Assembly: GCF_048403405.1 (NCBI RefSeq)
Contig: NZ_CP183129.1
DNA: 64,000 nucleotides
Origin: Escherichia coli
GTDB taxonomy: Bacteria > Pseudomonadota > Gammaproteobacteria > Enterobacterales > Enterobacteriaceae
Direction: 5' to 3' (one strand)
How positions within the stretch are numbered: the stretch's first letter is position 1; every line of letters begins with the position of its first letter. Shown here piece after piece: positions 1-33,127 of the stretch. Under the pieces are notes generated by a model. The model ran no database searches and was not told where the DNA came from. It saw nothing but the letters and a program-made list of their open reading frames with translations. A program made the translations under genes and the position numbers.

Positions 1-264
1 GAAGCTATTTATGGCAATTATCAAAATAATGTTTTAGCCAATATTATTTTCGTCGACTTCCAGCAACAAGGTGCAAGAGGACTGACGAACGCGCCTGATG
101 AAGATCCGGACGATTTAAGCACGGGATATTACGGTTCAGCGTACCGGTCACCGGAAAACTGGACGACGGCACTGCGAAGCAGTCATTTCAGCGCGGCAGC
201 CCGTCGGGGGATTATTTCTGACAGGTTTGTAGAAGCAATTTTGCAGTTTTGGCGCGAAAGGTGA
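1..264 (+). CDS. 3' end of an unidentified protein (C-terminal 87 codons; gene starts upstream of window)
   Basis: Open frame 1 runs from window edge to TGA at 262-264; convergent with the HNH gene. No family recognised. Confidence 0.3.
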   Translation, partial: EAIYGNYQNNVLANIIFVDFQQQGARGLTNAPDEDPDDLSTGYYGSAYRSPENWTTALRSSHFSAAARRGIISDRFVEAILQFWRER

Positions 265-271
265 GCGTTCA

Positions 272-922
272 TTAATTTGATTTATTTGCATCCATCAACG
301 CTTTTAACTGCTCCGGCGAAAACGGTGGTTTGCGTCGGTGCAGCATCGCATGGCAATTAGGGCACACAGGAAGCAAATCATTAACTGGATCCAGCTGGTA
401 ATCCTCTTTAATGGCTGAAAGCGGCACCAGGTGATGCATATGGATAAAGCCTTCTGCGATATCACCATAGATCTTCACCAGATCAACGCCGCATACGTTG
501 CACTGGCATCCATGATGTTCGACCGCTTTATCTCGGGCCTTTTTATCGCGTTCATAGCGGTTTACTGTCACCTTTATCGCCGCACCTTCAACGTATGTCT
601 CCTGCGACGGCAACTCATCCGGGAACAGAACGTCGGCTATGGTAGCTGCAGCGGCTTTATCCTGATGAATATGAAATCCCTGCTCTATGAGTAGCTTGAC
701 ACATTTAGATTTTATTCCGCCGGTGAAATCCGCAGGGGTAAATTGCGTCCCCGTCATCAATGTCGCTGCGATGCCAGCAATCGCCTTCGAGGGGTAACGT
801 CGGCCATGATATTCAATCTCATACAACCGTGCAGGCTGGAACTGATGAGTTTCTCCCGCATCCCATAAATGGATAGCTTCGATGATATACCGCCGCGGAA
901 GATGGTCGGGAAGTTTATTCAT
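272..922 (-). CDS. HNH endonuclease family protein with unassigned N-terminal domain
   Basis: 216-aa ORF; C-terminal HNH-type motif (HMHHLVPLS ... CPNCHAMLH) with Cys/His pairs; N-terminal ~120 aa unassigned. Confidence 0.55.
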   Translation of the reverse strand: MNKLPDHLPRRYIIEAIHLWDAGETHQFQPARLYEIEYHGRRYPSKAIAGIAATLMTGTQFTPADFTGGIKSKCVKLLIEQGFHIHQDKAAAATIADVLFPDELPSQETYVEGAAIKVTVNRYERDKKARDKAVEHHGCQCNVCGVDLVKIYGDIAEGFIHMHHLVPLSAIKEDYQLDPVNDLLPVCPNCHAMLHRRKPPFSPEQLKALMDANKSN

Positions 923-1523
923 GGGGAATACCCTTATACGTTCTCAGAACAGGCAGCAAAAAAACAAATGAGATCAAGGTAATATATCTTCACTTGCAGG
1001 CTTGAACAGCAGAAAATTTGCGAGCATGATCGCAATTATTTCACTGCCAGGGATATCAATGGCTTCCAGTAAATCGCTACAGCAGGCAATTGCCAATATA
1101 AAAATCTGGCATAAGGGTGAACAGCGCGCACCGCATAAGCCATTGTTATTGCTATACGTATTAGCGGGATACCTGAATGGACATCCACGCCTTTTCGATT
1201 ATTGTAGTGGAACAGTCTACGAGGATGCAGTTCGAAGTGAGTAAGTAAAGGTTGCTGGAAACGATCAATGCCGCCATACAATGATATTTGAGGATCAACA
1301 ATGAGTAATAAAAACTACGAAAGTCACCGCAAAGCGATTGTTAGTAAAGGTATACCACCCGCTCTATTAAATAGGCTCACCAATTCGGATGTTCAGGTGA
1401 TCAATACCTTCTTAACACGAGTGAGCAAACTGGAACTATCTCAACAAGAGAAAGACTGGATCATAAAAATCATCTCTATGGTTTAGAGAATTTCAGAATT
1501 TCAAGTAAAGACAATGCTGCATA

Positions 1524-3873: not shown

Positions 3874-4215
3874 TCACCGTGCCGTGGTGTTATGGCAGCG
3901 GCGCAGCAGACCTGTAGCCTGTCGCGCCCGTAAAATATCGACCGCACGAAGATAAGGCGTCTGTTCCTTCCAGCTAAATCCTTTCCTGTCGATACGGATC
4001 AATTCGTACTTCTCCACCAGAAAATTGACGGCATCGACCAGAGTGATCCCGGCGTCTATGTGTTCCTGAATCACCTTTTCATTGTTGAATGGTGTGTCAT
4101 TAAGATTCAGCCCGTAGTGCTGCTCCAGTAGGCGGGTCAGTAATGTTTGCCAGACCACGACGGGCGACAGGTATGACGTCGTCGCCCGCAGCGTCGTTGC
4201 AGGTATAATTTTCAT
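3874..4215 (-). CDS. CbtA/YkfI/YpjF-family toxin
   Basis: 113-aa ORF strongly resembling CbtA (…[22 protein letters not shown]…[25 protein letters not shown]…[11 protein letters not shown]). Confidence 0.8.
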
Positions 4216-4245
4216 AACGATGTTCCGTATTAAGGAGGTTAAAAC

Positions 4246-4581
4246 TCAGCGTTGAGCGGGATAAATAGCGATATAGACGTAACCACTGGAACCCAGCGTA
4301 TCGGCTTCGCAGGTTAGTTCTTTGGCGTATAGCGTGACGGTACGTTGTTGGCAGGGGGAGAGTTCACCGTCAGCCAGTTTCAGCTCCAGTTGTTTCATCA
4401 GCACCGGAAAAGCCTGGTCGATATGCAGCAGATCCGGGGAGCTGAATTTCCCGGTGATTGCGGCCCGATCAGCCAGGTAATGCAGGTTATGTCTTTCCTG
4501 TACCAGTCGAGCAGTGAAGCGTGGTGTTACGGTACAGGGAAGCCCCCATTCTTGTTGCATGACCTTGTCCTTTTGCAGCAT
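4246..4581 (-). CDS. CbeA/YfjZ/YafW-family antitoxin
   Basis: 111-aa ORF resembling CbeA (WGLPCTVTPRFTARLVQE…LHYLADRA…DQAFPVLMKQLELKL…TVTLYAKELTC); immediately upstream of the toxin. Exact start uncertain. Confidence 0.8.
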   Translation of the reverse strand: MLQKDKVMQQEWGLPCTVTPRFTARLVQERHNLHYLADRAAITGKFSSPDLLHIDQAFPVLMKQLELKLADGELSPCQQRTVTLYAKELTCEADTLGSSGYVYIAIYPAQR

Positions 4582-5054
4582 TACAACCAGCCCCGTTCGG
4601 CAAAAGAGAGGACATCCCCCGCCCCAATAATGAAATGATCCAGCACCCTCACTTTCACCAAATCCAGTGTCTTAACAATATTCGTTGTAATAAGTCTGTC
4701 GGCCCGACTGGGTTCCGTCACGCCGGAGGGATGGTTATGCGCAAGGATCACTGCTGCGGCATTGTGCCGTAGCGCAGATTTCACAATCTCACGGGGATGT
4801 ACTTCTGTGCTGTTAATCGTGCCGAGAAATAGCGTTTCGTGTTCCAGCAGTCGGTTCTGGTTATCGAGGTAGAGCACAACAAACATTTCCCGCTCCTGTC
4901 GTGCCAGATGCAGTTGCAGCCAGGTTTTTGTGGAGTCAGAGGAAAGAAAAGATTCGCCAGGATTGCGTTGATATTTCTCCAGCAGACGCATCGCACGGCG
5001 GATAACGCGTTGTTCACTCACCGAAAATACCGGTGTTAGCATCAGTTCAGACAT
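4581..5054 (-). CDS. RadC-like JAB/MPN-domain protein (YeeS/YkfG/YfjY family)
   Basis: 157-aa ORF with JAMM-like motif (HNHPSG) and RadC-like context upstream of the CbeA/CbtA pair. Confidence 0.75.
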   Translation of the reverse strand: MSELMLTPVFSVSEQRVIRRAMRLLEKYQRNPGESFLSSDSTKTWLQLHLARQEREMFVVLYLDNQNRLLEHETLFLGTINSTEVHPREIVKSALRHNAAAVILAHNHPSGVTEPSRADRLITTNIVKTLDLVKVRVLDHFIIGAGDVLSFAERGWL

Positions 5055-5083
5055 CGTATTTCCTTTACTATTAATAGCGTTGT

Positions 5084-5902
5084 TTATGAGGCCAGTTGCA
5101 ACATGTTTTCAGCCATCACCCACAGGGCGCGGTTGAGCCTGACATCGCCGTCGATGCCTTTAATGGCGCGGGTGTGCGTGCGACCACCTTTTGCCGTCCG
5201 CCCGTTTAAACCACCTTTGATCAGGTTCTCCTGAATACGCTGGTAGGTCGTCCACAGATCGCCGGATTCATCCTGCCAGCGGCGGGGAGCCAGCAACTGG
5301 GATTCCGTCACCGGCTGGTGCTCTTCGCCAAAGCGGTACGTCAGCGCCGCCTTTGCCAGCGCCTGTTGCGCAGGGGGAGGCAGCATCAGCGACTGCATGG
5401 CATCGCGTTTCTCTTCTACCTGGTCAAAAACACTGAGGACTTCATAAGCGCCTTCAATCACTTTCTCCACCACATTGCCTTTATGCGGTACCCGTACTTC
5501 ACCAAACGACTCGCCGCAGACCAGTCCGTTACAACAAACAGATCGAAACAGCCCTGGCAGCATCTGATAAGAACTGGAACCGTCATGGCTGTTGAGCAGA
5601 ATAATTTCCGGCACCTGGTTGCGATTGATCTTGTCTTCCCGGCGCAGACGCAGCATGTGTTTTGTATGCTCACGTTTACCCACATCACGAACACGGGTCT
5701 GGCAGGCAAAAAAAGGATGAAATCCTTCACGCTGGAGGTTATCGAGCAGGGTAATGGTGGGAATATAGGTATAGCGTTCGCTGCGTGATTCGTGCTTATT
5801 TTCCCCGAATACGCTGGGGACATACTGCATCAATTCGTCATGCGTTAATGGGCGATCGCGACGGATTTGATTTACGCGGCCAAAGCGGCTGGCTAAATTC
5901 AT
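5084..5902 (-). CDS. DUF932-like island protein (YfjQ-like)
   Basis: 272-aa ORF; size and context match the DUF932 genes of CP4-type islands; assignment from memory, not searched. Confidence 0.5.
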   Translation of the reverse strand: MNLASRFGRVNQIRRDRPLTHDELMQYVPSVFGENKHESRSERYTYIPTITLLDNLQREGFHPFFACQTRVRDVGKREHTKHMLRLRREDKINRNQVPEIILLNSHDGSSSYQMLPGLFRSVCCNGLVCGESFGEVRVPHKGNVVEKVIEGAYEVLSVFDQVEEKRDAMQSLMLPPPAQQALAKAALTYRFGEEHQPVTESQLLAPRRWQDESGDLWTTYQRIQENLIKGGLNGRTAKGGRTHTRAIKGIDGDVRLNRALWVMAENMLQLAS

Positions 5903-6089
5903 GGTAAATTCCTTAATAAAGAATATAAAAAACAGGGCCGCAGCTTCTGAAAAATTGCGGCTAATTTAATGCGTGATTAAAACGGACGGTAGTATAGGTG
6001 GGATAAAATAACAGGTACGTGCAGATATTAAATTACATTCCGGCAGTGCATATATGAAAGTGATATAGTGCTGAAATAATACATATCTG

Positions 6090-16091: not shown

Positions 16092-18167
16092 TTAATTCAC
16101 ACCCAGCGCCTTATAAACCGCATCAACCGGGTCTGAGTAAAAACTCACCTGAAACTTGGTAAATAACTCTGCCGGAACCGTTGGAATATCCATAGCCGAG
16201 GACATCGGCAACAGAACCCGTTTTGCGCCGCTGTCGAAGGCGAGCTGTAAACTGGCGGCAAGATCCTGCACCGGGTTAATTACTCCACCAAGGGTCATAC
16301 TGCCCAACACCACCATCTGTTCCTGCACCGGCTTTGCCAGCAATATCGAACATAAAGCGATAAGCGCAGCAAGACTGGTTGCGGTGCTAGGGCCAGTATT
16401 ATGCAGTTCAACGACATGAAGGTGATATTCATGATCAGAGAATTTCGCTGCCGCGCTTACCCGATTCAAATTGCCTTTGAAGTAATCGAAACCGACGCGG
16501 ATAGCTTCTTTCGCGGAGGTATTTGAACCCAGGCCCGATACACTATGCTTACCATTACCGGCAGTCATCTGCGTTTCAAAACGATACAGCCCGGTCATAC
16601 CGCTTTCTGCCTGAGTGACCAAATGCACAACGCCCGGCTTTGGCATTCCGGCAGGAATTAGTTCGCTGCCGCCCTGTTCCGGTACGCTTACAAAAAACTC
16701 TTCCAGCGTTTCGTTATCGATGTAGCTAAAGTTCACATCGAAGAACTCCAGGCCGCCCAGTTTTTTAAGTTGCTCTTTCACTCGACGACGAACTTCCATC
16801 GCATAGGTCAGGCAGACTCGTACATCTTCTTTGCTGTACGCGCCATCGGGATGCATGAGTTTTAACAACCCCGACACTGTACGTCGAACAGCAATCACGT
16901 CACGCTGATTGAGGTTATTTCCCAGCTTGAAGAATTTATCAATTGCATCGGAGAAGCTACGTTTACGCATCTCGCGCATGTATTCAGCGAGATAATCCGT
17001 AATCAAACCATAGCGATTGGTGAAAAATTCCGGGCGCATCTTAGGAATTTCCCAACCAGGAATATAGGCATGGAAGCGGTCAAAAAATGCAGTATCAATC
17101 ATCGCATCCGGGAACGGTGCTAGCAGATGGCTGGTTTTGACCAGTGTATCTACGCTCTGATTGATGTTGCCAACAAACACCATGGAGGCTTTGCCTTCAA
17201 TGGAGTCCCGACCACGAGAGAATGAGCCTGATGCCATGTAATCCTTCATGATCTGCACGCCATCTTTGTCTTTGAAGGTGATCCCTGCCACTTCATCAAA
17301 CGCGACGACGTCCCACATTCCCACAAGACCAATCTGCCGGCTGGCCATGTTGTAAAACAAGTTCGCCACCGTGGTTTGCCCGCCAGATACCAGCAGGGAG
17401 TTAGGAGAGCACTCTTTATAAACATGACTCTTACCTGTACCACGTGGACCAAGCTCGCAGACGTTATAGTTGTTTTCCACAAAGGGAATCATGCGAGTAA
17501 TCAGATGCCACTTGGTACGCTGCTCAATATTTGCAGGTTCCATCCCGACCGAACGTAACAGCACATCAATCCACTGGTCGCGATCAAACTGCTTGCGGGC
17601 TTCAAATACCTCGTCCATATCCATATTTGGCATCTGGATCGGCTTCAGTGTGAACAGCGAGAAAGGAGACGTTTTTTGCCCCTCTTCATAAAAGTAGTTC
17701 ACGGTGATCATGCACCAGATGCCACCAGTCAGCAGTTTCTCGTTGTCTTTCACCATCTGCGACGGCACCAGGGCATCTTTAATGCCAAGGTTAGAGAGCT
17801 GGGCTTCGTAAACGTCTTTCTTCTGATTTAGCTTTACCGTGACCTTATCGATAATCTTGTAAGAACCACGCTCGCGAATTAGTGATTTCACTTTTTCTGC
17901 TTCATCCGGGCGGACGTAGTTATCAGAAAGAATACGCTTAACCGACTGTAGCCCCTGCTCGACAACCTCATCGTCATCGGAGGCACAGTACATACCGAGT
18001 AGATATTCCAGTACGTAAACCGGAACATTCGCCCCTTCTTTAAGTTGCTTAGTCAGATCCTTACGCACCACGCGACCGCGAAAGTGCTGATTCAACAATG
18101 AATCCAGGTCCTGAGCCAACACAGAGGCCGTTTCCATGTTACTGGCTGAGTTATCCTGCTGTTGCAT
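16092..18167 (-). CDS. brxL: BREX BrxL (Lon-like protease-domain ATPase)
   Basis: 691-aa ORF with Walker A (LGPRGTGKSH) and C-terminal Lon-protease-like domain; last gene of the BREX operon. Confidence 0.85.
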   Translation of the reverse strand: MQQQDNSASNMETASVLAQDLDSLLNQHFRGRVVRKDLTKQLKEGANVPVYVLEYLLGMYCASDDDEVVEQGLQSVKRILSDNYVRPDEAEKVKSLIRERGSYKIIDKVTVKLNQKKDVYEAQLSNLGIKDALVPSQMVKDNEKLLTGGIWCMITVNYFYEEGQKTSPFSLFTLKPIQMPNMDMDEVFEARKQFDRDQWIDVLLRSVGMEPANIEQRTKWHLITRMIPFVENNYNVCELGPRGTGKSHVYKECSPNSLLVSGGQTTVANLFYNMASRQIGLVGMWDVVAFDEVAGITFKDKDGVQIMKDYMASGSFSRGRDSIEGKASMVFVGNINQSVDTLVKTSHLLAPFPDAMIDTAFFDRFHAYIPGWEIPKMRPEFFTNRYGLITDYLAEYMREMRKRSFSDAIDKFFKLGNNLNQRDVIAVRRTVSGLLKLMHPDGAYSKEDVRVCLTYAMEVRRRVKEQLKKLGGLEFFDVNFSYIDNETLEEFFVSVPEQGGSELIPAGMPKPGVVHLVTQAESGMTGLYRFETQMTAGNGKHSVSGLGSNTSAKEAIRVGFDYFKGNLNRVSAAAKFSDHEYHLHVVELHNTGPSTATSLAALIALCSILLAKPVQEQMVVLGSMTLGGVINPVQDLAASLQLAFDSGAKRVLLPMSSAMDIPTVPAELFTKFQVSFYSDPVDAVYKALGVN

Positions 18168-18177
18168 AACGCCTCAC

Positions 18178-20775
18178 TTAAAAGAAGTCATCCTGAAATG
18201 CCAGGTCGATCGTGATCGGGTAGCGACCATACTCTGTTGCGCTGTCCGCATTCTCCAGGATAAGAACATACTTGTTTTTACGATTGAATGCCGTCCCCAT
18301 GAGTTTCATGGTTACATCGCGGGTGCGTTTACCCATATCTTCGTTATCACTGTCGAAGCATACTGTTTCCGTGCCGGAGACGACCTGGTTGTTTTCATCG
18401 ACGATAAAGATATTCAGCGTGCGCGGCTCATTTAAATCATTCACTGCCGAAGTCTGAATAAAACCAATTTTATCAATGCTGTTAACCAGTTTGATCACCT
18501 GATCCCGCGCAACGACGGGCACGGGCTGCCGCTGGGGTTGCTTCTCAGCCGCTTTCTTTTCAAGCGCGCGAATCTTCAACACAGGAACACACACTTCCTG
18601 CAGCATGGCTCCGCCATGAACGAAACGAGCACCCCCTACGAAGTGGAAACGCTGTACTCCTTTGGGTAACAGGAATTCACTTTCATCGCTTGCGCCTGCA
18701 GTATCAGCCAGTTTGCCGTGCCAGCAAAATTCACTTTCAGGCAGTTGATGGCCTACAATAAAACGCTTATTCGCTTCAATCGTGTCTTTGGCTTTACTTT
18801 CCAGCTTCGTTTTATCCTGCTCCACCAGCGCTTGTTGTTGGAACAGGAAGCCGTGATCGGCGGTAACAAAAATTCGGCTGGCATTAAATCGGCTACGCAG
18901 GCGTGAAACCAGATCTTTTAGCTCAGTGATTGCACTTCGGCAGGCCTCAAACGTTTTATCTTCCGTTGCAGCCTTATCACCCATGGCATCTATAGTGTCG
19001 TGCCAGATATAAACTACGGAAGCGTTGCGGATTTGCTCGTTCACTTCCTGGTTATTGGCGTTCTGCAAGTCCTTTGCTTTCAGCGCTACACCATTCACCT
19101 TCGCAAGAATAGCGGCTCTTTTTTCAAACCCGGAAGTGGACATCCCATCGGCGTATACTACACCAGAATTATCAGGAAGATAGCTCAACGACTCATGAGG
19201 CAACAGTGCGGCCATGCCCAGTTGGGTATAGCTTGGGAGCACTCCGGTCTGGGAGCGCAGCTCTGCACTGAAGTGCTTCTCATAGTTGATATGCCTGCCC
19301 AGCTCTTCCGCCACTTCGTAGCGCAATGCATCCGAGATCACGACAAAAACACGTTTGACCTGCGAGGTGTCAAACTGACGTTTAACATTCTCTTTATAGA
19401 AATTGCGCTGCAGGGGTATGCCGCTAAACTGCCAGGCCTGCATACGGTTTTCCGCTTCCAGCAGTTTGTTCCAGCCGCGACTTAGTTCAGTCAGATACCA
19501 ATTGCTGTATAACTCTTCGATGAATTTATCCAGTTCATGCAGGATCATCGCCCCTTTGCTGTGCACTGGTGCAGCATATTCATTGAACAAACGATAGGTC
19601 TGATCGAAGCGATAAATTTCGTCACAATAGGCCTTCCAGAACGCACCTGTATCGGGGAAATTAAACCCGTCGGTGTAACGGTTACGCAAATTCAGCAAGC
19701 GTTCTGCCTGACGAATAGCATTCCAGATAGAAAGATACTCTGGGCGGGTTTGGCTCCAGTATTTCGCACTGCGCTCTGAAACCAACGCTTTAAACGCATC
19801 TCTGTCCAGAGTGGTGCTCTCTTCCTGCAACTGTGTCACCAGACCACGGATAATAAGTTGCTCAATAGCCTCGAAGGTTTCACATTTTGCCAGTGTATAT
19901 GGTGAGCTGTAGTTGTAGTGTTCTTTTGGCTGGAGCGTCTGCTGCAAATCCTCTGCACAGTAATCGTATTCTACTTTATAGCGACGATCGTTGCGCCACG
20001 CCCCCATAAAGGCCAGTGACGAGGCCCGACCAGCCGCGGTAGCCAGCACATTTTTACTCAACCAGTCACGATGTGCTTCATCACCCTGCGCCCAGAGATC
20101 GGTACAGAACAGTTTCAGAAGCAGATTTTCCATTGAAGGAGATTCAGACTGGTATCCCAACTCAAGGCGAAGAATTTCCCAAAGTACCTCATCCAGGCCA
20201 AGCTTCGTCAGTACGGCGAAAGTGTTCTCGAGTGCGCTATCATCTTGCTGCCGTGCTGCGACAAACTGCTGAACCAAAGCAAATAGTATTTCTTTGGTTT
20301 CGAAGGTACTGGCCCCGACCACCACCGCCAGCATTTTCTTATCGAGAGAGTTTTCCGTTTCGCGCTCGGTGACCCATCCCTTCAGGATCTGAGTTCGCTT
20401 AACGGTAAAGAAGGCTTTGCGAAGCTGAATATGTTCGCGTAAACCGAGTTGCGGGATACCCAGAGAATTCAGGGTGATCGCCGCATAATCAGCGTGGAAT
20501 TCGGTACTATAGAGGCGGATATCCAGCAACCAGTCCTGCTCGCGAGCAGGAACCTCACAGGTGAAATAGAGTAAAAATTTCTGCTCAGGCTCGTCGATTT
20601 CGAGTCGTTTTTTTGTTGCGAGCACAGAAACGCCACGCATATCCAGCAGCGTGACATTGTCGAGATCCAGCTCATTAATTGAATCAGTGAAGCGTTGTTC
20701 CGGGTCGTGCCAGAAGACGATACGGTTGTCGGTAAACTTCTGACGAAGCCCTGATTCCAGTTCTTTAAATTGCAT
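18178..20775 (-). CDS. pglZ: BREX PglZ (alkaline-phosphatase-superfamily protein)
   Basis: 865-aa ORF with PglZ-type motifs (…VTADHGF…); positioned between the methyltransferase and brxL. Confidence 0.85.
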   Translation of the reverse strand: MQFKELESGLRQKFTDNRIVFWHDPEQRFTDSINELDLDNVTLLDMRGVSVLATKKRLEIDEPEQKFLLYFTCEVPAREQDWLLDIRLYSTEFHADYAAITLNSLGIPQLGLREHIQLRKAFFTVKRTQILKGWVTERETENSLDKKMLAVVVGASTFETKEILFALVQQFVAARQQDDSALENTFAVLTKLGLDEVLWEILRLELGYQSESPSMENLLLKLFCTDLWAQGDEAHRDWLSKNVLATAAGRASSLAFMGAWRNDRRYKVEYDYCAEDLQQTLQPKEHYNYSSPYTLAKCETFEAIEQLIIRGLVTQLQEESTTLDRDAFKALVSERSAKYWSQTRPEYLSIWNAIRQAERLLNLRNRYTDGFNFPDTGAFWKAYCDEIYRFDQTYRLFNEYAAPVHSKGAMILHELDKFIEELYSNWYLTELSRGWNKLLEAENRMQAWQFSGIPLQRNFYKENVKRQFDTSQVKRVFVVISDALRYEVAEELGRHINYEKHFSAELRSQTGVLPSYTQLGMAALLPHESLSYLPDNSGVVYADGMSTSGFEKRAAILAKVNGVALKAKDLQNANNQEVNEQIRNASVVYIWHDTIDAMGDKAATEDKTFEACRSAITELKDLVSRLRSRFNASRIFVTADHGFLFQQQALVEQDKTKLESKAKDTIEANKRFIVGHQLPESEFCWHGKLADTAGASDESEFLLPKGVQRFHFVGGARFVHGGAMLQEVCVPVLKIRALEKKAAEKQPQRQPVPVVARDQVIKLVNSIDKIGFIQTSAVNDLNEPRTLNIFIVDENNQVVSGTETVCFDSDNEDMGKRTRDVTMKLMGTAFNRKNKYVLILENADSATEYGRYPITIDLAFQDDFF

Positions 20776-21344
20776 TATTGATTCTCAAACCATTCGACCA
20801 GTTCATGAGCGCTAGGGCAAGCAGGGTGTCTGGCAGAACTCTGAATATCAAAACCGTGATGCGTTACCATTCTCCTGGCAAATGCGGTTTTAGAACTTCC
20901 CGGTCCCTGTTTTCCTAGCTCGCGTGAAATTACTTTTAAACGATCCCATGGCATTTCAGTTGTAGCTTCAGGTAACTCTTCATTAAATGTGTCTACTTTA
21001 AGCCATTTTTTCATTGCCTCTGAATCGGCAAGAAACCAAGCCTCAACTGCTTTGACTGCGATAAACGAGATGTCGACATCTTGATGGGCAATTCGGGCCC
21101 GTACATCAGCAACAGATGCCGCATCTTCCAGGTCGGTCAGAATACAGATCCGTTCAGCACCTACATTTCTGAGCCTAGCAACGAAATTATCAACATACTT
21201 CGGTAACAGGTTACCACCACCTTTGGCATCAATAACGGGAGTTACCAATTCAAAATTATTCGTGCGCAGAAATGCAATGAACGCTGGTGAATTCACGATG
21301 ATTGACTCAGTATCACCTTCAACGATAAAACCTATTTTTACCAT
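20775..21344 (-). CDS. small TOPRIM-like protein (DUF4276-like) embedded in the BREX operon
   Basis: 189 aa; N-terminal IGFIVEGDTE and downstream ICILTDLED resemble TOPRIM Glu and DxD motifs; start overlaps the ATPase stop by 7 nt and its stop overlaps the pglZ start (TAATG). Confidence 0.6.
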   Translation of the reverse strand: MVKIGFIVEGDTESIIVNSPAFIAFLRTNNFELVTPVIDAKGGGNLLPKYVDNFVARLRNVGAERICILTDLEDAASVADVRARIAHQDVDISFIAVKAVEAWFLADSEAMKKWLKVDTFNEELPEATTEMPWDRLKVISRELGKQGPGSSKTAFARRMVTHHGFDIQSSARHPACPSAHELVEWFENQ

Positions 21345-22459
21345 GGCAAACCGCCATCAAACATATTCATCAGCCACGCGGTATCCAGTGGGATTTCCTT
21401 TTTATCAACCCCCGCATCTGAAGCATGCATCAGCTGAGTTTTCCCCTCTTTTTTACTAACAAACCACAGTTCGTCTGGTTCCAGATTGCGAACAATAGAT
21501 TCACTATGGGTAGTAATAACAATTGGATGATTCAAAGAGGCATTTTCACGCATCAATTGCACAAGTTCCCCAATGGCTTTTGGGTGAATACCGCGTTCAG
21601 GCTCTTCAATAATGGTCATCCCCGTTTGCTGTGCTCGACTCAAGATGGCCGTCATAATACAAAGCGTGAAGATGGTGCCGTCAGAGATAAGATGGGCAGG
21701 AAAGCGGGCACGAGTTCCCTGTTCTTTAAAGGTCAATACCGTTGAGCCATCCAATTTTTGTTTCTCGGTCGATACATTTTCCATCCCCGGAACGATGAGT
21801 TCCATCCACTCCAGTATTTGCTCTTTAAATTCGCTATTCGATTCGAGAGCAGCAAGCACAGAAGCAATGTTTCGACCATGACTGTCCAGAAATGTCGAGT
21901 CAGTTTTGGCGCTATCGGGCTCTTTAGCACGTAACGGATCGATGCGAAAAACAACAATATTGGTCAAAAAAGCGTACAGTTCACTTTTCCCCAGTAGCAT
22001 TAGTGCCGTCATATCTGACGAGTAGTTAGGGATTAAAGTCGCAGGGATTTCATCACTATCGCTCAGGCGAATCATAAGAGTATCAGGGTGCTTACGATCA
22101 ATATAAATATCTCCATCAATGACCAACTTTTCAGTGATTGTTGGTTTTTTATCCATGTTTTTGATCGTCAAGTCATAGGTAAACTGTTTTCCTCCCAGCT
22201 CAATTTGAAGGTGCAGTGAAGCCGTAGTCCGATTTTCCTTACGCAGCTTGTAGCAATGAATCTGCTGAAAACCGCCAAAATCACGGATTGCTTGTGTCGC
22301 CCCGGTTTTCACTACGGCACCAAAAAAAGCCAATGCATCGGTAATGTTACTTTTGCCCGCACCATTGGCTCCAGCAAAGGTGATAAATGGTGGGCTTTCC
22401 ACAAGGGAAAGCTCCGCGATGCTCTTGTAGCCTTTAATAATCAGGGGATGTTGATCCAT
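21338..22459 (-). CDS. ABC-type ATPase (AAA_15/AAA_21-like) embedded in the BREX operon
   Basis: 373 aa; Walker A (GANGAGKSN) near the N-terminus and C-terminal ABC-like H-loop region (IVITTHSESIV); start overlaps the pglX stop (TAATG). Confidence 0.7.
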   Translation of the reverse strand: MDQHPLIIKGYKSIAELSLVESPPFITFAGANGAGKSNITDALAFFGAVVKTGATQAIRDFGGFQQIHCYKLRKENRTTASLHLQIELGGKQFTYDLTIKNMDKKPTITEKLVIDGDIYIDRKHPDTLMIRLSDSDEIPATLIPNYSSDMTALMLLGKSELYAFLTNIVVFRIDPLRAKEPDSAKTDSTFLDSHGRNIASVLAALESNSEFKEQILEWMELIVPGMENVSTEKQKLDGSTVLTFKEQGTRARFPAHLISDGTIFTLCIMTAILSRAQQTGMTIIEEPERGIHPKAIGELVQLMRENASLNHPIVITTHSESIVRNLEPDELWFVSKKEGKTQLMHASDAGVDKKEIPLDTAWLMNMFDGGLPW

Positions 22460-25400
22460 TATGCCTCCTGTGGCGCACTGCCGGTGATCGCCTTGACATC
22501 CGCCAGCAGATCGCCAAATTTGCCGTAGTTAACCTTAACGCCGTCATCCAGATCAATAGTGATACGTCTATCAGCATAGTGACGCAAGCGATCGTCAAAA
22601 TTGCGCAGCTCGTTGAATTTTTTAGTCAACCCATCCAGCTCTTTTTTCAGGCGTGTGGTGGCAGCGCCCGATTCTGCATTTTTAAGCTGATCGTTAACAA
22701 GATCGATATTTCCCTGGTAGCGTGCCAGCAGCGGAACTACATATTCGGTACGCATACGTGACAATGTGCCTTCATTATAACGGTGCAGATACACCAGGCA
22801 CTCAAACGCCTTCTCTTTACCTGAGCTGAATAGCCAGTAAATTGGGCGCTTCTTGTACATCTTCATATGATCTTTCCAGAACTGGGTGGAAAGATAGCGA
22901 CGGATGGTATCCAGCGAAGACTCGCCTTTTTTCGGCTTGATTGCGTACAAGCAGAGGCTTTCGGCGATGAAATCGAGGTTTTCTTGTAAATGTTCTTCGC
23001 CCCAGACTGTGCGAACGAACTCTTTAACGCGGGAGGTAACATCGTCATCGAACCAGTCAGAATCCATTAATGGCAGGATACCATCTTCATCGGCAGGGAA
23101 GGTTTGGTAGGCGCCTTCATCTACTAATTCAGAAAAGCCTTTGTTACCTTCGTGGGCGTAGACCAAGCCTTCGCGATCAAGGGAATAGCGGCCCATCATG
23201 CAGCCAATAGCCAGGCTAAGTGAGTTTATAACCTGAATCGCCTTAAATTGGTTATATTCATCTTTTGAAATTGAGCTTAATGACTGGAAAACATTATTTT
23301 CCAATGTTATTTCTGCCAAGGCAAGATTGTTTTCGTTTAAAATATTGCATTTTTCATAAAATATTTTGTTATTATCACATTCTAGCTCATGTGTTTTGAT
23401 TAACTTTTGATAAAAAACTTCAGTCTGGTTTTTTAATATGTTTACTAGGCTGCCGTTTTGAAACGCATCCTGATTGAAGGAAAACTGATAACTATTTTCC
23501 TGCTGACTCCAATTTTCTTTAGCCAGAGAAATTAGTTCAGCAGTGTTCAAGGATAGGCTCTCAATCATTTTCTCATCAAAAAATGCTGGTAATTTACTTA
23601 TATCCCCCGGTTGATAATTTAATGTTGGAGAGATAGCCTTTATTAAAGAGATAATAATATCACTATTAATAAATGCTAACACAGGCAGGTAAAGGTCTTC
23701 ATTATTAACAAATAACGAAGACCCTGCATTGTCAAATAATGAGGACTCTGAGACTCTTGCAGATGTCTTGCTTGAGGAAAGAGCGTTCCATGTAATCCCT
23801 TTTTTAAATATAAAATCTAAATTATAGTTATGCGAACGTACCTTTCCTGATTTTTCATCGGTAAAATTTTGAATTTCCCGACCATCGTCGAACCAATTTA
23901 CGACATAATCAAGATTACCGTACCACTTTCTATATTCACCACCTTTCTGATAAGGGAACCATTTCAGACCGGATTTTTTAGCTTGAATACGATCAGTAAA
24001 ATCAAAACCGATATTCGCGAAATTAACTTCATGCCAAAAACGTAAAAAACGCTCATTATCCGCTGTTGCCATTCCAAGGCGTGTTGAGGCAATTTGAGAT
24101 ATTTTTTTATTATCAAATAAATTAACCTCACTTTCGCTGAGCCAATACGCAATCGGTGCACCGGGGATTTTTTGGAAGTCATCGGCAGCGGCAGTCTTTA
24201 AACGATCGTTTTTAACCGGAAATTCTTTTGGATATCCTTCATCATTGATATCGTCATTCTCAGTATAAGAGAATGCCCCTTGATAAGAAGGAATGTGAAC
24301 ATTTCTAAACACTGTTGCATTGGTACCAAAGGCAATTTTCATAACGCCATTGCCCATATGTACCATCGTCTCAATAGTGTATTTATCCAATATATTCGCA
24401 CGCATATTTTCATAGCTAGACAAAAACATCCATGATTGCATAGTCACCATTGAGTTGTACGCAGCATCTTTGAGCCAGGAAAAACCCCGCTCAATAAACA
24501 TCGCAAACAAATCTGACTTACTGTCCGGGAATTGTTTCTTAGCGAACTCTTTCAGTTCACCGTTCATCCCTTTCCCACCCATATACGGCGGGTTCGCCAC
24601 AACCGCATCGTAACGCTGCGCCAAAATCCACGCCTGCTGAATATACGGAATCAGCTCTGCTGCCGCTTCTTTCTGCGGGATATCACCCTCGACAGCCAGA
24701 CGATATAGTCCACCCAGGAATGTCTTCAGCGCCGTTTCATCTTCCTGCGGCACCTGAATCAGTGATCCCAGCGTTTTTGCACTAGTGAACAAAGCCAGAG
24801 TACGCATCAGTAGCTTATATTCCGCGCTGTCGGTATTGGCCAGTGACGTCCCTTGGGTAAACATATCTCCCATGCTGCCGCGTTGCGCCTGCTGATGAAA
24901 GTTCAGCTTGGTCCACAGTTCAGCGATATCCAGTTTACTTTCCTGCAGCGAAACGATATTCAGGCGAACGCCACGGCCCAGAATACGACGATCGTCCTGA
25001 CGGGCAAGCATCAGCATCGCAAAACCGGAAAGCTGCGCCGCACGGTCATCAATATCTAGGCCGAAAATATTGTTTTCCAGAATCAGCTGCGGAATGTCAC
25101 GGGTACGGTAGCCACGCTCTTCGTAAATGGCCTTCAGCACGTTATAGGCTTCGGTCAGGATATGCCCGGAGCCGCAGGCCGGGTCCAGCACCTTAATACT
25201 TTCTGGTTCAATGCTTGATGGGGTAATAGCCGCCAGCTGTGCCTGCACTTCCGGCGTTTGTTCCGCTGGCTCAATGTAGTACGGCATTTTGCCTTTCAGG
25301 CTGGAGTCCGGATAGGTTTGCAGCCACTGGCGGCCCACCGAGTTCTGCACCAGATACTGCACAATCCAGTTCGGAGTAAACAGCTGGGTAGCGGCAGGAA

Positions 25401-26112
25401 TATCTTCGCTCTTCACCACCTTGCCGATCACATCATCTTTTTTCTCGGAAATATAAAACTGATACAACCAGCCGATCACTTCGACCTGTTTCCAGTCTTC
25501 TTCAGGAATCGTGTCCACCAGCCCGCGCAGAATAGAGTCGGTGCGAGTCAGGTTATCCGGCAATACCAGTTCGATATCATCATTGACTGCTTCGAACAGG
25601 AAAGGCATAGCGCCGTGCAGCGCATGGCACTGTGCAAGCAATAGTTCACGGTACAGCTCTTCGTCACGATCGCCCGCCAGCTTCATCTCCACCAGGCGTG
25701 ATTTGTCCAGCCCAAGTGCATCAGCCACTTCCGGCACATGATCCAGAACCTCAAAACTCCCTTCCAGGGTCGGGTGAGACAGCATACGGAAACCGTGATC
25801 AAGATAGCCATGCAGCTCCATATAGCGAATAGCGCAAAAGCGGTTAAACCAGGTGTAAGCGATGTGCTCCACCAGCACGTCATAGCCCTGCTTTTCTGCA
25901 CGCTTGACCAGACGTTCACGGCGTGAAGCCAGTGATTTATCCAGCGAGAACTGACCATATCGCACACTGTCGCCAAGATCGGTTGCTTGCGCTATTTGCA
26001 GGTTGCCTTTTTTATCGGCGTCAATACCCAGCGTGGTCAGTTTTTGCATGACCGCATCGCGGAACTGTTTACGTGCCACCGGGGCGTATTTTTTGATATT
26101 TGACGTATTCAT
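22459..26112 (-). CDS. pglX: BREX PglX (N6-adenine DNA methyltransferase / specificity protein)
   Basis: 1217-aa ORF with methyltransferase motif I (LDPACGSGHIL) and motif IV (VVANPPYMGG); AT-rich central to C-terminal block. Confidence 0.85.
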   Translation of the reverse strand: MNTSNIKKYAPVARKQFRDAVMQKLTTLGIDADKKGNLQIAQATDLGDSVRYGQFSLDKSLASRRERLVKRAEKQGYDVLVEHIAYTWFNRFCAIRYMELHGYLDHGFRMLSHPTLEGSFEVLDHVPEVADALGLDKSRLVEMKLAGDRDEELYRELLLAQCHALHGAMPFLFEAVNDDIELVLPDNLTRTDSILRGLVDTIPEEDWKQVEVIGWLYQFYISEKKDDVIGKVVKSEDIPAATQLFTPNWIVQYLVQNSVGRQWLQTYPDSSLKGKMPYYIEPAEQTPEVQAQLAAITPSSIEPESIKVLDPACGSGHILTEAYNVLKAIYEERGYRTRDIPQLILENNIFGLDIDDRAAQLSGFAMLMLARQDDRRILGRGVRLNIVSLQESKLDIAELWTKLNFHQQAQRGSMGDMFTQGTSLANTDSAEYKLLMRTLALFTSAKTLGSLIQVPQEDETALKTFLGGLYRLAVEGDIPQKEAAAELIPYIQQAWILAQRYDAVVANPPYMGGKGMNGELKEFAKKQFPDSKSDLFAMFIERGFSWLKDAAYNSMVTMQSWMFLSSYENMRANILDKYTIETMVHMGNGVMKIAFGTNATVFRNVHIPSYQGAFSYTENDDINDEGYPKEFPVKNDRLKTAAADDFQKIPGAPIAYWLSESEVNLFDNKKISQIASTRLGMATADNERFLRFWHEVNFANIGFDFTDRIQAKKSGLKWFPYQKGGEYRKWYGNLDYVVNWFDDGREIQNFTDEKSGKVRSHNYNLDFIFKKGITWNALSSSKTSARVSESSLFDNAGSSLFVNNEDLYLPVLAFINSDIIISLIKAISPTLNYQPGDISKLPAFFDEKMIESLSLNTAELISLAKENWSQQENSYQFSFNQDAFQNGSLVNILKNQTEVFYQKLIKTHELECDNNKIFYEKCNILNENNLALAEITLENNVFQSLSSISKDEYNQFKAIQVINSLSLAIGCMMGRYSLDREGLVYAHEGNKGFSELVDEGAYQTFPADEDGILPLMDSDWFDDDVTSRVKEFVRTVWGEEHLQENLDFIAESLCLYAIKPKKGESSLDTIRRYLSTQFWKDHMKMYKKRPIYWLFSSGKEKAFECLVYLHRYNEGTLSRMRTEYVVPLLARYQGNIDLVNDQLKNAESGAATTRLKKELDGLTKKFNELRNFDDRLRHYADRRITIDLDDGVKVNYGKFGDLLADVKAITGSAPQEA

Positions 26113-26160
26113 ATGAAGTCCTGAAAAGGGCAGACAATGTCTGCCCTGAAAATGGGGAAA

Positions 26161-29100
26161 TTACTGAAGCTGTACGCGTTCACCTGCGTTAATGGCATCC
26201 ATTAGCGTTTTACGGAGTTGTTCCAGCGCTTTGTCTACCTGTTCGGCGTTATCCAGCGTTGTCACACCCGCCGCTCGTTCCATCGTTTTACGCGTGTTTA
26301 CGTAGATGGTTTTTTTCAGCTTGGGTTCAGGCTTAACTACGGGGTCGATAATCCCAGGCTGAGGAGCAGGTTTTGGATCAGACACTTTCTTACGCTGATC
26401 CTCAACCCAGCCGTTCAGCCGTTCATTCGCTTTAAATTGTAGCGCTCGAACCTCAGCCTGTTCTTCCATAATCTGTGGGATCAGGCCGTTCTGCTCCACT
26501 TTCTTACGCGATTGTTGCATCGGGTGTAAAAGCGAGTGTTGCAAGTCAGCAGGGACGTGCATCTCCTGCATGCTTTGCTTAAGTTCATTGATATGACCAT
26601 CGATCTGTAGCAGCGCATGGCTTCGATATTCTTCGACCAGACGCTGGTTGATGGTTTCAACGGTTTCAATCAGCGGGATAATCCGATGCAGTTCTCCATA
26701 AGGTCGTGCCTTGCTGTAGATCCCTTCCAGTTCCTGTAACGCCTTTTGGGCCGTTTCGTCTTTATCCAGCGCGTTACGGTTAGCTTTAAAACTGCCATTC
26801 AACGCCATACTCAAGCGCTGCCAGGTAGCGTATTGGTTTTTGTAGAAGCTAACCAAATCGTCCCAGTCTTCCGAGAAATCTTTAAGATCGTCAGCCGCTG
26901 CGGTGATTTTTTCAATGACCGCGTATTCCTCTTTCTCGTTAAGGATCCCGTTCAGCAATACCAGACCTTCTTCTATCTCTTTACGGCCAGGGTTTTGTCC
27001 ACTCTCTGCACGAGTTTTAAAAACAGTCAACTCGCTATTCCAGCGGCCAAAGAGTTCGCGAATATGAGAGACCAACGACTGTTCTTCACGCTCGTTAAAC
27101 GGCTCTCCAGCAATCTCTGCCATCAGCTGCGCAGCTTTAGTCAACTGTGCTTCATCATGGCGACGAACTTTATGCAGACGCAAATCGCTGTAACGACGTG
27201 AATTATTAAACGCGTCCCACGCCTGCTTCAGTGCGATTTCACTGCCTTGCAGAGTGAAGCTGTATTTACCGCTGCGTGCCAGCCGAGCAACCAGCAATTT
27301 GACTTCATCTTCCGGCCAGCCAAACGGGCGACGGCCAAAAGTGGTGAGAATATCCCGCAGGTAAACTGGCTTATGAGTCTCAATACTCATGCTGATCCAG
27401 TTATCCACTTCACGCATCGCCTCTGGGTTGGATTCTTCCATACCCCCGAGATCGAGCTGGGTATCATTTTCTACTGTCAACAGCGCGTGAGTTTCACGAT
27501 TTACGTCTCCGGTACTAAGACGCAGCAATTTTAGTTTAGAGAAACTGTTCTCGATAACGTAACCGCAGGCTGCATCCACGATAGCTAACGGCGAAGAGGA
27601 TTTCTTATCCAGCCGTTCGCCCAGCGCCCAGACATCAGCTTGAGCCAGCAAGCCTTCAATCTGCGCCTTAAGCGTTTTTTCACGCATACTATTTTCACGG
27701 CCTTTTTCCGCCAACAGCGTTGCCTGTTCCGGGCGCTGGCCGCTTTGCTTGCTGAGGAAAGCTTTGGTCTGAGCGTACATGGTCAGGTCTTGCCAGGTAC
27801 GAGCCTCATCAGGCAGGCAAATTAAGATGCAGTCTTTACTGTCCGTCATCAGCAGACTATTAGAATGCGCACCCTTATAGCTCTCGTAGTTCGAGTCCAG
27901 TGGCGTGAGCACTTTAACCACCAGATCGTTAAGATTCGCACCATCCAGCGGATGTCCGTTACAAAAACGACTGATATCAAAATCCTGCTTATTGGCCGGA
28001 TAGCGATATCTTTTGTTTTTCAGGATCTCTTCGAAAATGATGGTTGAGAGTTGCTTATTGATGGTGGTGAATTCCACGTCAATATTGCGGATTTCGTTTT
28101 CAATCTCTTTTTCTTCGTTAGTGAGAAAAACAAATTTGTCATCAATACGCGAGATCAGCATCTCAGCCTGCAGACGATTAAGGCTGGCTTCAATCTGTCG
28201 ACGGAGTTCCACTTTATCAGTATCAATACGCTCAATAGAGAGCGTGACGAGATTGTCGAGAGTACTTTTCAGCACATCGACGTAGCGGATCAGGAACAGT
28301 GTCTTTAGTAGTTTGCCGTCAAATTCAGTCAGTGACGGAGACTGGCAGGCCTGAATAATAGTGCGGCTAACTGCAGGTTCCAGGAAGCTTTCAATCGCTG
28401 AATAGAAGCGCCAGAACGGGACCAGACTATCCAGACCATCTGCGGAGATTTGCACAGCAGCCGACTGGAAGGCATCTAGCAAAGAGCGCTCCCCCATTGC
28501 CAGCTGCTTACCTGCGGCCCCTTTAGTACGGATTGATTCAAAGACTTTTTGCAGGATCTGGTAATGCCACGGTACAAACGGATAGTTATCCACGAACTCG
28601 CGGCTGTTTGTATAGGCTCGCAGAGTAGCGGTCGTTGTCGTGTCAAACGCCAACTGGTTACGCAGAATATCGCCTTTTTCCTGCCAGATAGCTTCCAGCG
28701 CCGGTATTGCCGCATCGGTTTTTACCAGCAGACGTTTCTGGATAACTTCTGAAGTATTCGAGCTGGAGAGTTGTAAGCGCGTTGAGAAACGTCCCTGAAT
28801 CTTGGAGAAGTCCTGACCATCACGACTGCTCATACCGCCAATAGCAGCATTAATGTCAGCCTGGGAGGTAACTATCACCCATGCCCGCCCACCACAAATA
28901 ACGCCCAAGTTTTCGGTGATAGTTTGCAGCTTGAGCATCATCTGAGCATCTTTACCAATGAACTGACCAACTTCATCGACCATAAACAGGATATTGCGAT
29001 TACCATGGCTGTCGAGCCACTCTTTCACCCACGTACAGAAATTTTTGATATCCAATGGGAAGTTCTTATCAAGTTGCTCGATCCATTGACGAGAAGACTC

Positions 29101-29775
29101 TTCACTCTGGCCTGTAGCAATACTCAGTGCCTGAGCCATCTGATCGTTTATCATCAGATAAACATCACGTTCGTCTTCCCAGCGAGACCCTGTAATGTCC
29201 GCGAAGGCTGCCCTAAAGGTATCAAATTGTCCACGCTTATCGAGCTCACGTTCCAGATGTGCAATATGTGGGAAGTCGCCACAATAACCAGCTAGTTCGT
29301 TAAAGACTTTCAGAAAGACTTTGAGTATGGCATCAACGCCATCTTCAACATTCGCACGTGAGTCAATATTGAATAATATGACATCGGTCGGATGTTGTAC
29401 CGATTTCCGAATATCAGCCAATAGCAGTGCATCATCAATTTTCTCTTCAAAGAAGGAAAGTGCATTACGAGTGACACCATTATGGCTTACTTCGCGGTTC
29501 GCCAGTAGATAGGATAAGATCTTAATGAAGTGTGATTTACCCGAACCAAAGAAGCCTGAAACCCAGACGCCTATTTTGTCAGCAAGCTGTAATCTGCCAG
29601 GGCCAGTAGCAGGGGCATATACTTCAAAGAACTGACGCAGGTGACCATCCAGCTCTCTGGTAATGACATACTCATCCAGTTCTATCCAGGCGCTTTCGTC
29701 GTCGGTCTGCTCGGCTTTAACCACGCCGTTAATATTACGTTTTAGCTGTTTCTCAAAAATTTGTTCAATATTCAT
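26161..29775 (-). CDS. brxC: BREX BrxC/PglY (large P-loop ATPase)
   Basis: 1204-aa ORF with N-terminal Walker A (GFFGSGKSHFIKIL); position between brxB and pglX. Confidence 0.85.
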   Translation of the reverse strand: MNIEQIFEKQLKRNINGVVKAEQTDDESAWIELDEYVITRELDGHLRQFFEVYAPATGPGRLQLADKIGVWVSGFFGSGKSHFIKILSYLLANREVSHNGVTRNALSFFEEKIDDALLLADIRKSVQHPTDVILFNIDSRANVEDGVDAILKVFLKVFNELAGYCGDFPHIAHLERELDKRGQFDTFRAAFADITGSRWEDERDVYLMINDQMAQALSIATGQSEESSRQWIEQLDKNFPLDIKNFCTWVKEWLDSHGNRNILFMVDEVGQFIGKDAQMMLKLQTITENLGVICGGRAWVIVTSQADINAAIGGMSSRDGQDFSKIQGRFSTRLQLSSSNTSEVIQKRLLVKTDAAIPALEAIWQEKGDILRNQLAFDTTTTATLRAYTNSREFVDNYPFVPWHYQILQKVFESIRTKGAAGKQLAMGERSLLDAFQSAAVQISADGLDSLVPFWRFYSAIESFLEPAVSRTIIQACQSPSLTEFDGKLLKTLFLIRYVDVLKSTLDNLVTLSIERIDTDKVELRRQIEASLNRLQAEMLISRIDDKFVFLTNEEKEIENEIRNIDVEFTTINKQLSTIIFEEILKNKRYRYPANKQDFDISRFCNGHPLDGANLNDLVVKVLTPLDSNYESYKGAHSNSLLMTDSKDCILICLPDEARTWQDLTMYAQTKAFLSKQSGQRPEQATLLAEKGRENSMREKTLKAQIEGLLAQADVWALGERLDKKSSSPLAIVDAACGYVIENSFSKLKLLRLSTGDVNRETHALLTVENDTQLDLGGMEESNPEAMREVDNWISMSIETHKPVYLRDILTTFGRRPFGWPEDEVKLLVARLARSGKYSFTLQGSEIALKQAWDAFNNSRRYSDLRLHKVRRHDEAQLTKAAQLMAEIAGEPFNEREEQSLVSHIRELFGRWNSELTVFKTRAESGQNPGRKEIEEGLVLLNGILNEKEEYAVIEKITAAADDLKDFSEDWDDLVSFYKNQYATWQRLSMALNGSFKANRNALDKDETAQKALQELEGIYSKARPYGELHRIIPLIETVETINQRLVEEYRSHALLQIDGHINELKQSMQEMHVPADLQHSLLHPMQQSRKKVEQNGLIPQIMEEQAEVRALQFKANERLNGWVEDQRKKVSDPKPAPQPGIIDPVVKPEPKLKKTIYVNTRKTMERAAGVTTLDNAEQVDKALEQLRKTLMDAINAGERVQLQ

Positions 29776-29787
29776 TGCTGTCGTCTT

Positions 29788-33042: not shown

Positions 33043-33127
33043 TGGTGCCGAAGGCCGGACTCGAACCGGCACGTATTTCTACGGTTGATTTTGAATCAAC
33101 TGCGTCTACCGATTTCGCCACTTCGGC
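33043..33127 (-). tRNA. leuX: tRNA-Leu (anticodon CAA)
   Basis: Reverse complement reads GCCGAAGTGGCGAAATCGGTAGACGCAGTTGATTCAAAATCAACCG…GGTTCGAGTCCGGCCTTCGGCACCA, with CAA in the anticodon loop and a 3' CCA. Confidence 0.9.

Follow-up and report, generated by a model that had tools for sequence, protein, structure and literature searches.

A 64,000-nucleotide stretch of Escherichia coli DNA from contig NZ_CP183129.1 (the window) encoded, at 272..922 on the minus strand, a 216-amino-acid (aa) protein in which a small N-terminal domain related to the "head" of the restriction enzyme ScoMcrA is coupled to a C-terminal HNH nuclease. The product of this gene, called head-HNH here, is probably a stand-alone McrA-type HNH endonuclease of the ScoMcrA_N-HNH family that serves type IV-like defence, with an overall arrangement of reader-like domain, linker and nuclease. 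The family identity and the history of the nuclease cassette were near-certain. Dependence on a DNA modification, taken alone, was perhaps the case, with a chance somewhat short of even. The protein family is already catalogued (PF26345 plus PF01844; "HNH endonuclease" at NCBI) and is not a new kind of system.

The open reading frame (ORF) was initiated by ATG and comprised 216 codons plus a stop. Its product is WP_001037973.1 in RefSeq, named "HNH endonuclease" in the annotation of identical E. coli genomes, and several complete E. coli chromosomes were 100% identical to the first 3 kb of the window. Analysis with the local version of Pfam-A, which is older than PF26345, assigned HNH (PF01844) alone, at residues 141-197 with an E value of 4e-4, which bore out the 216-aa ORF with a C-terminal HNH reported in the initial annotation. 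A database search revealed 2,590 homologues at E<=1e-3, and most of them, including the 96%-identical cluster representative P0001, were labelled PF26345 (ScoMcrA_N) plus PF01844 in precomputed Pfam. Both halves of the ScoMcrA_N-HNH architecture were found in the window protein: homology of the head, and a zinc-finger HNH with the catalytic His and Asn. In an alignment of 39 homologues reaching down to 43% identity, 36 columns were invariant, including the CxxC...HH...CPNCH...H signature. The gene was intact in 8/8 E. coli alleles fetched, with pairwise ratios of non-synonymous to synonymous substitution rates (dN/dS) of 0.08-0.38, roughly 0.1-0.25 as a summary figure; between two orphan alleles there were 12 synonymous and 6 non-synonymous differences (dN/dS 0.14). 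Since the alleles were intact, the active-site residues invariant and the dN/dS low, the gene is genuine, evolves under purifying selection and has kept its active site undamaged, with the zinc and catalytic residues all present.

The McrA-type HNH nuclease part (residues 121-216, 275..562 on the minus strand) consisted of an NRYERD..AR helix followed by the zinc and HNH residues. The zinc ligands C141, C144, C187 and C190, together with H163, H164, N189, H191 and H195, were invariant in the 39 homologues. The closest solved relative of this cassette was EcoKMcrA (6ghc, profile E 6.9e-6), as Foldseek agreed, and the alignment covered only residues 100-198 of the window protein, against residues 177-270 of 6ghc. 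The nuclease was preceded by a linker predicted to be disordered (residues 89-120, 563..658 on the minus strand), in which the predicted local distance difference test score (pLDDT) of AlphaFold2 fell below 50 at residues 89-106 and 117-121. The linker bore a conserved FPDE...EGA motif leading to the HNH, and P101, E103, E112 and G113 were its conserved residues in the 39-homologue alignment. The cassette from FPDE...EGA and V-VN-YER--AR through CPNCH...H was found again, 45-58% identical, in 68 or more proteins of many phyla, and the N-terminal domains of these proteins were unrelated to the head, with FPDE...EGA still preceding the HNH. A conserved McrA-type nuclease joined to a variable N-terminal domain is a known design, found in EcoKMcrA, TagI, VcaM4I, ScoMcrA and EcoWI (PMC7461809). 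Dozens of N-terminal domains of 100-340 aa were fused to the same cassette, and Pfam matched nearly none of them (only DUF3427 three times and Mrr_N twice). The domains fused to the McrA-type cassette are a pool of uncharacterised candidate readers. A scan of genome contigs gave mostly HNH-only matches with other N-terminal domains, and thus few extra full-length head-HNH contexts.

The N-terminal domain of about 120 aa that the initial annotation could not assign was resolved into an 88-aa fold (residues 1-88, 659..922 on the minus strand) and the 32-aa disordered linker. The fold was indeed unassigned in the local Pfam, and it was assigned here to the head of ScoMcrA (Sco4631, PDB 5ZMM), a type IV restriction endonuclease of Streptomyces coelicolor that depends on phosphorothioate (PT) and 5-methylcytosine (5mC). 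When residues 1-88 were folded alone by AlphaFold2, the model had a pLDDT of 88, a predicted template modelling score of 0.81 and an alpha-beta-beta-alpha-alpha-beta topology. The family-invariant residues of the head were A16, F28, Y34, Y43, K46, A47, G50, A52, P63, F66, G69, C74 and L78. The head matched residues 29-93 of ScoMcrA (phmmer E 3.6e-5), and its profile matched residues 4-96 of 5zmm with an E value of 9.2e-12. This N-terminus of a type IV enzyme was the sole solved relative of the head, and the matched segment lay outside the sulfur-binding domain (SBD) of ScoMcrA (residues 91-260). A cryptic SBD in the head, prompted by a Y-P-x-K-A motif resembling the YP...A pocket of the SBD, was rejected, since the match was to residues 29-93 and not 91-260, the ScoMcrA head itself has YDSKA at that place, and hhalign of the head against the SBD gave a probability of 0.2%. 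Structure comparison showed no SRA, EVE/PUA or YTH fold in the head, and its fold was like that of no established reader. No known modified-DNA reader domain (SRA, EVE/PUA, YTH, NEco, SBD, DUF3578 and others) was found in the 216-aa protein by Pfam and by hhalign against the SBD, and NCBIfam gave only a sub-threshold PT-DNA_restrict match on the linker and HNH part (18 bits against a cut-off of 180). The comparisons with SRA, EVE/PUA, YTH and PT-binding domains proposed at the outset were therefore all negative. The domain also matched no non-DNA-binding family.

The head domain itself was widespread. A profile search revealed 3,031 cluster representatives (clusters at 50% identity) at E<=1e-3, with lengths of 93-1,567 aa. 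The partner Pfam domains in 90 longer representatives were HNH (39), HNH_2 (18), EVE (12), NOV_C (8) and McrB-type AAA_5 (6), followed by the rarer nSTAND3 (5), DUF3427 (4), SAD/SRA (3), MrcB_N (2) and AspBHI_N (1). PADLOC flagged these head-bearing proteins as restriction-like or candidate defence proteins, and a Foldseek search of the head against AFDB50 yielded 370 structures at E<=1e-3, whose descriptions covered the same range. In some proteins, as here, the head was the sole non-catalytic domain, and in others it stood beside an established reader. The head is thus a module that type IV-like defence proteins combine promiscuously with other domains, which fits a DNA-targeting role without proving it.

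In the proposed mechanism, the small head would serve as a DNA-targeting module that tethers the protein to its target DNA, and the flexible linker of about 30 aa would let the zinc-finger HNH (beta-beta-alpha-metal) reach and cut the DNA nearby. The DNA of the host would be spared, and foreign DNA with a modification or feature missing from the host would be attacked. Across the window and about 12 independent contexts, no methyltransferase gene was consistently adjacent to head-HNH (PglX, 21 kb off, belongs to a phage-exclusion system described below). Because no protecting methyltransferase travels with head-HNH, the target would be something that the host DNA lacks, as in type IV-like logic. 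We also infer that the head may bind DNA, that the enzyme may act against phages or plasmids in a modification-dependent manner, and that it may do so independently of its usual neighbour. The type IV-like layout claimed in the initial annotation held for the order of N-terminal domain, linker and McrA-type HNH, for the ScoMcrA and EcoKMcrA relatives, for the lack of a methyltransferase and for the location in a defence hotspot, but the known reader domain of such enzymes was missing.

The head domain and the HNH of ScoMcrA were homologous to those of the window protein, whereas ScoMcrA has 561 aa and carries an SBD and an SRA domain between the head and the HNH, neither of which is present in the window protein. 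In Enterobacteriaceae, in contrast to ScoMcrA, the SBD was located on a separate, divergently encoded protein with another HNH subtype (HNH_2). EcoKMcrA (PDB 6GHC), TagI and VcaM4I likewise consist of a reader, a linker and a zinc-finger HNH and have no methyltransferase, but the N-terminal domain of the window protein was unrelated to NEco, SRA and EVE, and only the HNH part aligned. The NEco domain, by which EcoKMcrA binds 5mC and 5-hydroxymethylcytosine, was not present in the window protein.

Several observations weigh against the proposal of an independent, DNA-targeted nuclease. The head of the window protein was not strongly basic, with 10 Lys and Arg against 9 Asp and Glu. Since the head co-occurs with the readers EVE, SRA and DUF3578, it may be an auxiliary or adaptor domain and not a sensor. 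PADLOC had no dedicated model for head-HNH and gave only weak matches to its ScoMcrA and EcoKMcrA models. In the 2018 paper on the ScoMcrA structure, the function of the head was described as unknown and its attachment as flexible; that paper alone was found in the literature on PF26345, ScoMcrA_N and "ScoMcrA-like", and the head-HNH family is uncharacterised there. Additionally, the recurrent pairing of head-HNH with an SBD-HNH gene in Enterobacteriaceae could mean that it depends on a partner that has been lost in this strain.

This partner was the real linked neighbour overlooked in the initial annotation. It was preserved in the window as a divergent stub at 1059..1208 on the plus strand, comprising the first 50 of about 290 codons of a PT-dependent endonuclease of the EcoWI type (SBD-HNH_2, NF045808). 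RefSeq annotated the same interval as a pseudogene of a "phosphorothioated DNA-binding restriction endonuclease" with the C-terminus missing. The stub matched positions 2-45 of the 284 positions of NF045808 (E 7.9e-17, 16% of the model), and tblastn with SBD-HNH showed 64-78% identity over residues 1-50 and no match beyond. It kept the KPLLLL motif, which is a motif of the sulfur-binding domain (PMC7461809). The homology of the window to intact pairs stopped at 1202-1222, and therefore the partner was deleted from codon 51 onward. In relatives, the intact partner had 289-290 aa and was a full member of NF045808, with about 439 bits. Intact pairs, divergent across 136-180 bp, were present in Citrobacter farmeri and two other Citrobacter, in Klebsiella aerogenes and in Klebsiella sp., and their flanks were unrelated (a type VI secretion system; a type I restriction-modification system plus Mrr_N-HNH; Wadjet). 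E. coli NRZ14408 had an intact pair at the same position as in the window, between leuX and nanS, as did 5 further E. coli genomes. A 59%-identical E. coli paralogue of head-HNH was found on an integrative conjugative element (ICE) with an SBD-HNH gene 4 kb away. No SBD gene was found within 5-6 kb of distant head-HNH members (loci L016, L018-L020, L043 and L096-L101), and head-HNH was solitary in every sampled non-enterobacterial lineage. The EcoWI-type enzyme, the usual genomic neighbour, resembles head-HNH in being a small HNH nuclease made of a single chain and belonging to this defence islet. It differs in that the window protein has no SBD and carries an HNH of PF01844 instead of PF13391. 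The target of EcoWI is GpsAAC/GpsTTC (PMC7461809). In some Klebsiella, Enterobacter and Raoultella genomes, a further small nuclease gene, Mrr_N-HNH (219 aa; 4260-4919 of the K. aerogenes locus L010), came after SBD-HNH, so that up to three reader-HNH genes lay side by side.

The divergent intergenic region between head-HNH and the stub (923..1058) was aligned with those of the intact E. coli, Citrobacter and Klebsiella pairs. A block of about 28 nt (about 1012-1040) was invariant across the three genera, and the rest of the region diverged. The block contained an 18-bp palindrome, TTGCGAGCATGATCGCAA (1018..1035 on the plus strand), located 24-41 nt before the SBD-HNH start, with the general form TTGCGAT(C/G)ATGCTCGCAA. 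The window contained a single copy of the palindrome, a number that chance alone could give. It preceded SBD-HNH with 0 mismatches at all 24 loci retrieved, among them the one on the ICE and those where head-HNH was missing. Its probable role is that of an operator, a promoter or a leader hairpin for SBD-HNH, and here it is orphaned beside the stub.

The state of the locus varied widely among 5,426 complete E. coli genomes. At least 80% of head-HNH was kept in 1,238 of them and at least 80% of the pair in 326, and about 900 had an intact head-HNH without the partner. Some fragment of the locus was present in 4,890 genomes, and in K-12 only 248 bp of the SBD gene were left. Among genomes with any trace, both genes were estimated in about 7%, SBD-HNH only in about 25% and head-HNH only, the state of the window, in about 17%, the rest having fragments; these shares are rough estimates from evenly spaced rows of such genomes and not counts. 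The reciprocal decay was also observed: in E. coli E-ge-1, SBD-HNH was intact, the sequence equivalent to window 378-948 was missing, and only the last 105-106 bp of head-HNH were left (5973-6077 of locus L095). In Enterobacteriaceae, head-HNH normally forms half of a divergent two-gene cassette. The cassette lies at the distal end of the leuX hotspot, beside nanS. In the window, a deletion has taken the SBD-HNH partner from codon 51 onward and left head-HNH as an intact orphan that is probably still functional.

These data bear directly on whether head-HNH works only together with SBD-HNH, as a split ScoMcrA, in which case the orphan in the window would be a non-functional relic. In such an arrangement, for example, the head could dock on the SBD enzyme at PT sites and add a second nuclease. 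The recurrence of the divergent pair in four genera and within unrelated flanks, the SBD-HNH gene near the ICE paralogue, the presence of the head and the SBD in one chain in ScoMcrA and the occurrence of both reciprocal decay states are all consistent with an obligate partnership. However, EcoWI alone is an active dimer that cleaves PT-DNA and restricts dnd+ plasmids (PMC7461809), and the palindrome belongs to the SBD gene alone, since it is present also where head-HNH is missing. The solitary head-HNH genes of all sampled non-enterobacterial lineages, the roughly 900 partnerless E. coli genomes and the excess of synonymous differences between the orphan alleles argue against it as well, and an obligate partnership was considered unlikely. 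We concluded that the pair is a mini-islet specific to this lineage, in which each gene encodes an independent nuclease, and not a two-component enzyme.

The alternative that the head is a regulatory, protein-interaction or small-ligand domain, which would hold a non-specific HNH inactive until infection so that the protein acts as a toxin or in abortive infection and not by restriction, was judged improbable to the same degree. It would agree with a fold unlike that of any established reader and with the adaptor-like way in which the head accompanies genuine readers, as well as STAND or AAA NTPases, in other proteins. SprMcrA, a related enzyme, becomes a non-specific nickase when its reader domain is truncated (PMC7461809), which shows that HNH cassettes of this type lack intrinsic specificity. 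On the other hand, the conserved basic residues R41-R42, K46, K71 and K73 and the aromatic residues F28, Y34, Y43 and F66 of the head would be typical of a nucleic-acid surface, and no conserved antitoxin-like partner was found next door. The head also occupied the N-terminal place in fusions to McrB-type AAA_5 (residues 2-91 in P0155, 813 aa, and P0238, 642 aa), and the N-terminal position in McrB-family proteins is that of the DNA-binding domain.

A silent or decaying remnant without current function in this strain was still less likely. The locus is eroding across E. coli, the neighbouring SBD-HNH has already been destroyed here, and a promoter and terminator scan of bases 1-1600 gave counts at or below the shuffled expectation, with no promoter-like site above chance upstream of the gene. 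Against this, the ORF was full-length with every invariant residue of the family, purifying selection was evident among the alleles, orphans included, and the 136-bp upstream region was kept and near-identical to that of the intact pairs. Phages and group I and II introns often encode HNH nucleases, and head-HNH lies within an island rich in mobile-element genes, but its origin as a homing endonuclease or as a phage or mobile-element remnant was very improbable, given its constant site next to nanS on the E. coli chromosome whatever the island content, the lack of any intron, intein, terminase or phage context among neighbours that are defence genes, its McrA-type restriction relatives and the defence modules that are the other fusion partners of the head.

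The convergent gene truncated at the window edge was confirmed as a reading frame in frame 1. It was the 3' end of nanS (1..264 on the plus strand, last 87 codons, continuous with full-length NanS), and a gap of 7 nt separated its stop codon from that of head-HNH. NanS (YjhS) is the sialate O-acetylesterase of the nanCMS operon, and the frame was fully open in the matching genome and named nanS in other strains. Because nanS is a core gene, about 5,000 of the 5,426 complete E. coli genomes matched the first 3 kb of the window in part. The functional link between this gene and head-HNH suggested by the initial annotation was rejected, since the edge gene is a core sialic-acid gene and no supporting evidence was found. 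nanS belongs to the core chromosome, where it borders the leuX variable region, and lies outside the nuclease system. In many RefSeq records nanS was called an incomplete pseudogene, and window 183-272 was annotated on the other strand as a 29-aa "hypothetical protein"; the nanS frame was open over the full 981 bp and intact in other records, so the pseudogene label looks like an annotation artefact.

The other boundary was the tRNA-Leu(CAA) gene leuX (33043-33127 on the minus strand), and the intervening 33 kb or so from leuX to nanS constitutes the leuX variable region. The region corresponds to E. coli defence hotspot #37, which is reported to have the highest occupancy of any defence island in the species and to carry Dnd phosphorothioation systems at times (PMC12707154). 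The minus strand (16092-31007) held a complete type I BREX (bacteriophage exclusion) system, with brxA (30387-31007), brxB (29788-30390), brxC (26161-29775), pglX (22459-26112), pglZ (18178-20775) and brxL (16092-18167), and a two-gene, ATPase-type HEC-01A/HEC-01B module (20775-22459) was inserted between pglX and pglZ. Just past the deletion junction, an AbiEii/AbiGii-family nucleotidyltransferase toxin gene (1524-2471) and an overlapping DUF6088 (AbiEi-like) gene were located at 1524-2859 on the minus strand. One orphan strain (L103) had the same junction and the next 290 bp to base 1496, after which it differed. CP4-type island genes followed on the minus strand (3874-5902), encoding a CbtA-family toxin (3874-4215), a YeeU-family antitoxin (4246-4581), RadC (4581-5054) and a DUF932 protein (5084-5902), and DUF4942 was also among the CP4-like island genes between leuX and nanS. 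In several strains, a McrBC pair lay directly after SBD-HNH, giving a run of modification-dependent nucleases beside nanS.

No mention of the pairing of head-HNH with EcoWI-type enzymes was found in the literature searched; the EcoWI papers did not mention a neighbouring HNH gene, and their neighbourhood analysis covered dnd genes only. The findings on head-HNH contradict nothing in current understanding. A broader reading, offered tentatively and well below the confidence placed in the nuclease itself, is that the head represents a new class of DNA reader serving thousands of type IV-like effectors and that the nanS-side cassette is a two-sensor islet. As parts of the same tentative reading, effectors including HNH, NOV_C and McrB-type GTPases might rely on the head to detect a modified base, a modified backbone or a DNA structure. 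Head-HNH and SBD-HNH might likewise cover different marks of foreign DNA, each being lost separately when the host gains the matching modification system. The locus provides a natural experiment, with both genes, either alone, or fragments at one chromosomal site, and its states allow gene loss to be correlated with modification systems that the host itself carries in this hotspot, for example dnd, ssp and dpd. EcoWI and other modification-dependent HNH enzymes already serve to map modifications genome-wide, and a new specificity could thus be useful. If the head is a DNA reader, it would be a new recognition module for type IV restriction, with about 3,000 clusters at 50% identity, and would give a role to the one domain of ScoMcrA left unexplained by the crystal structure. 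Head-HNH offers a practical way to learn what the ScoMcrA head does, and it may lead to a new restriction specificity.

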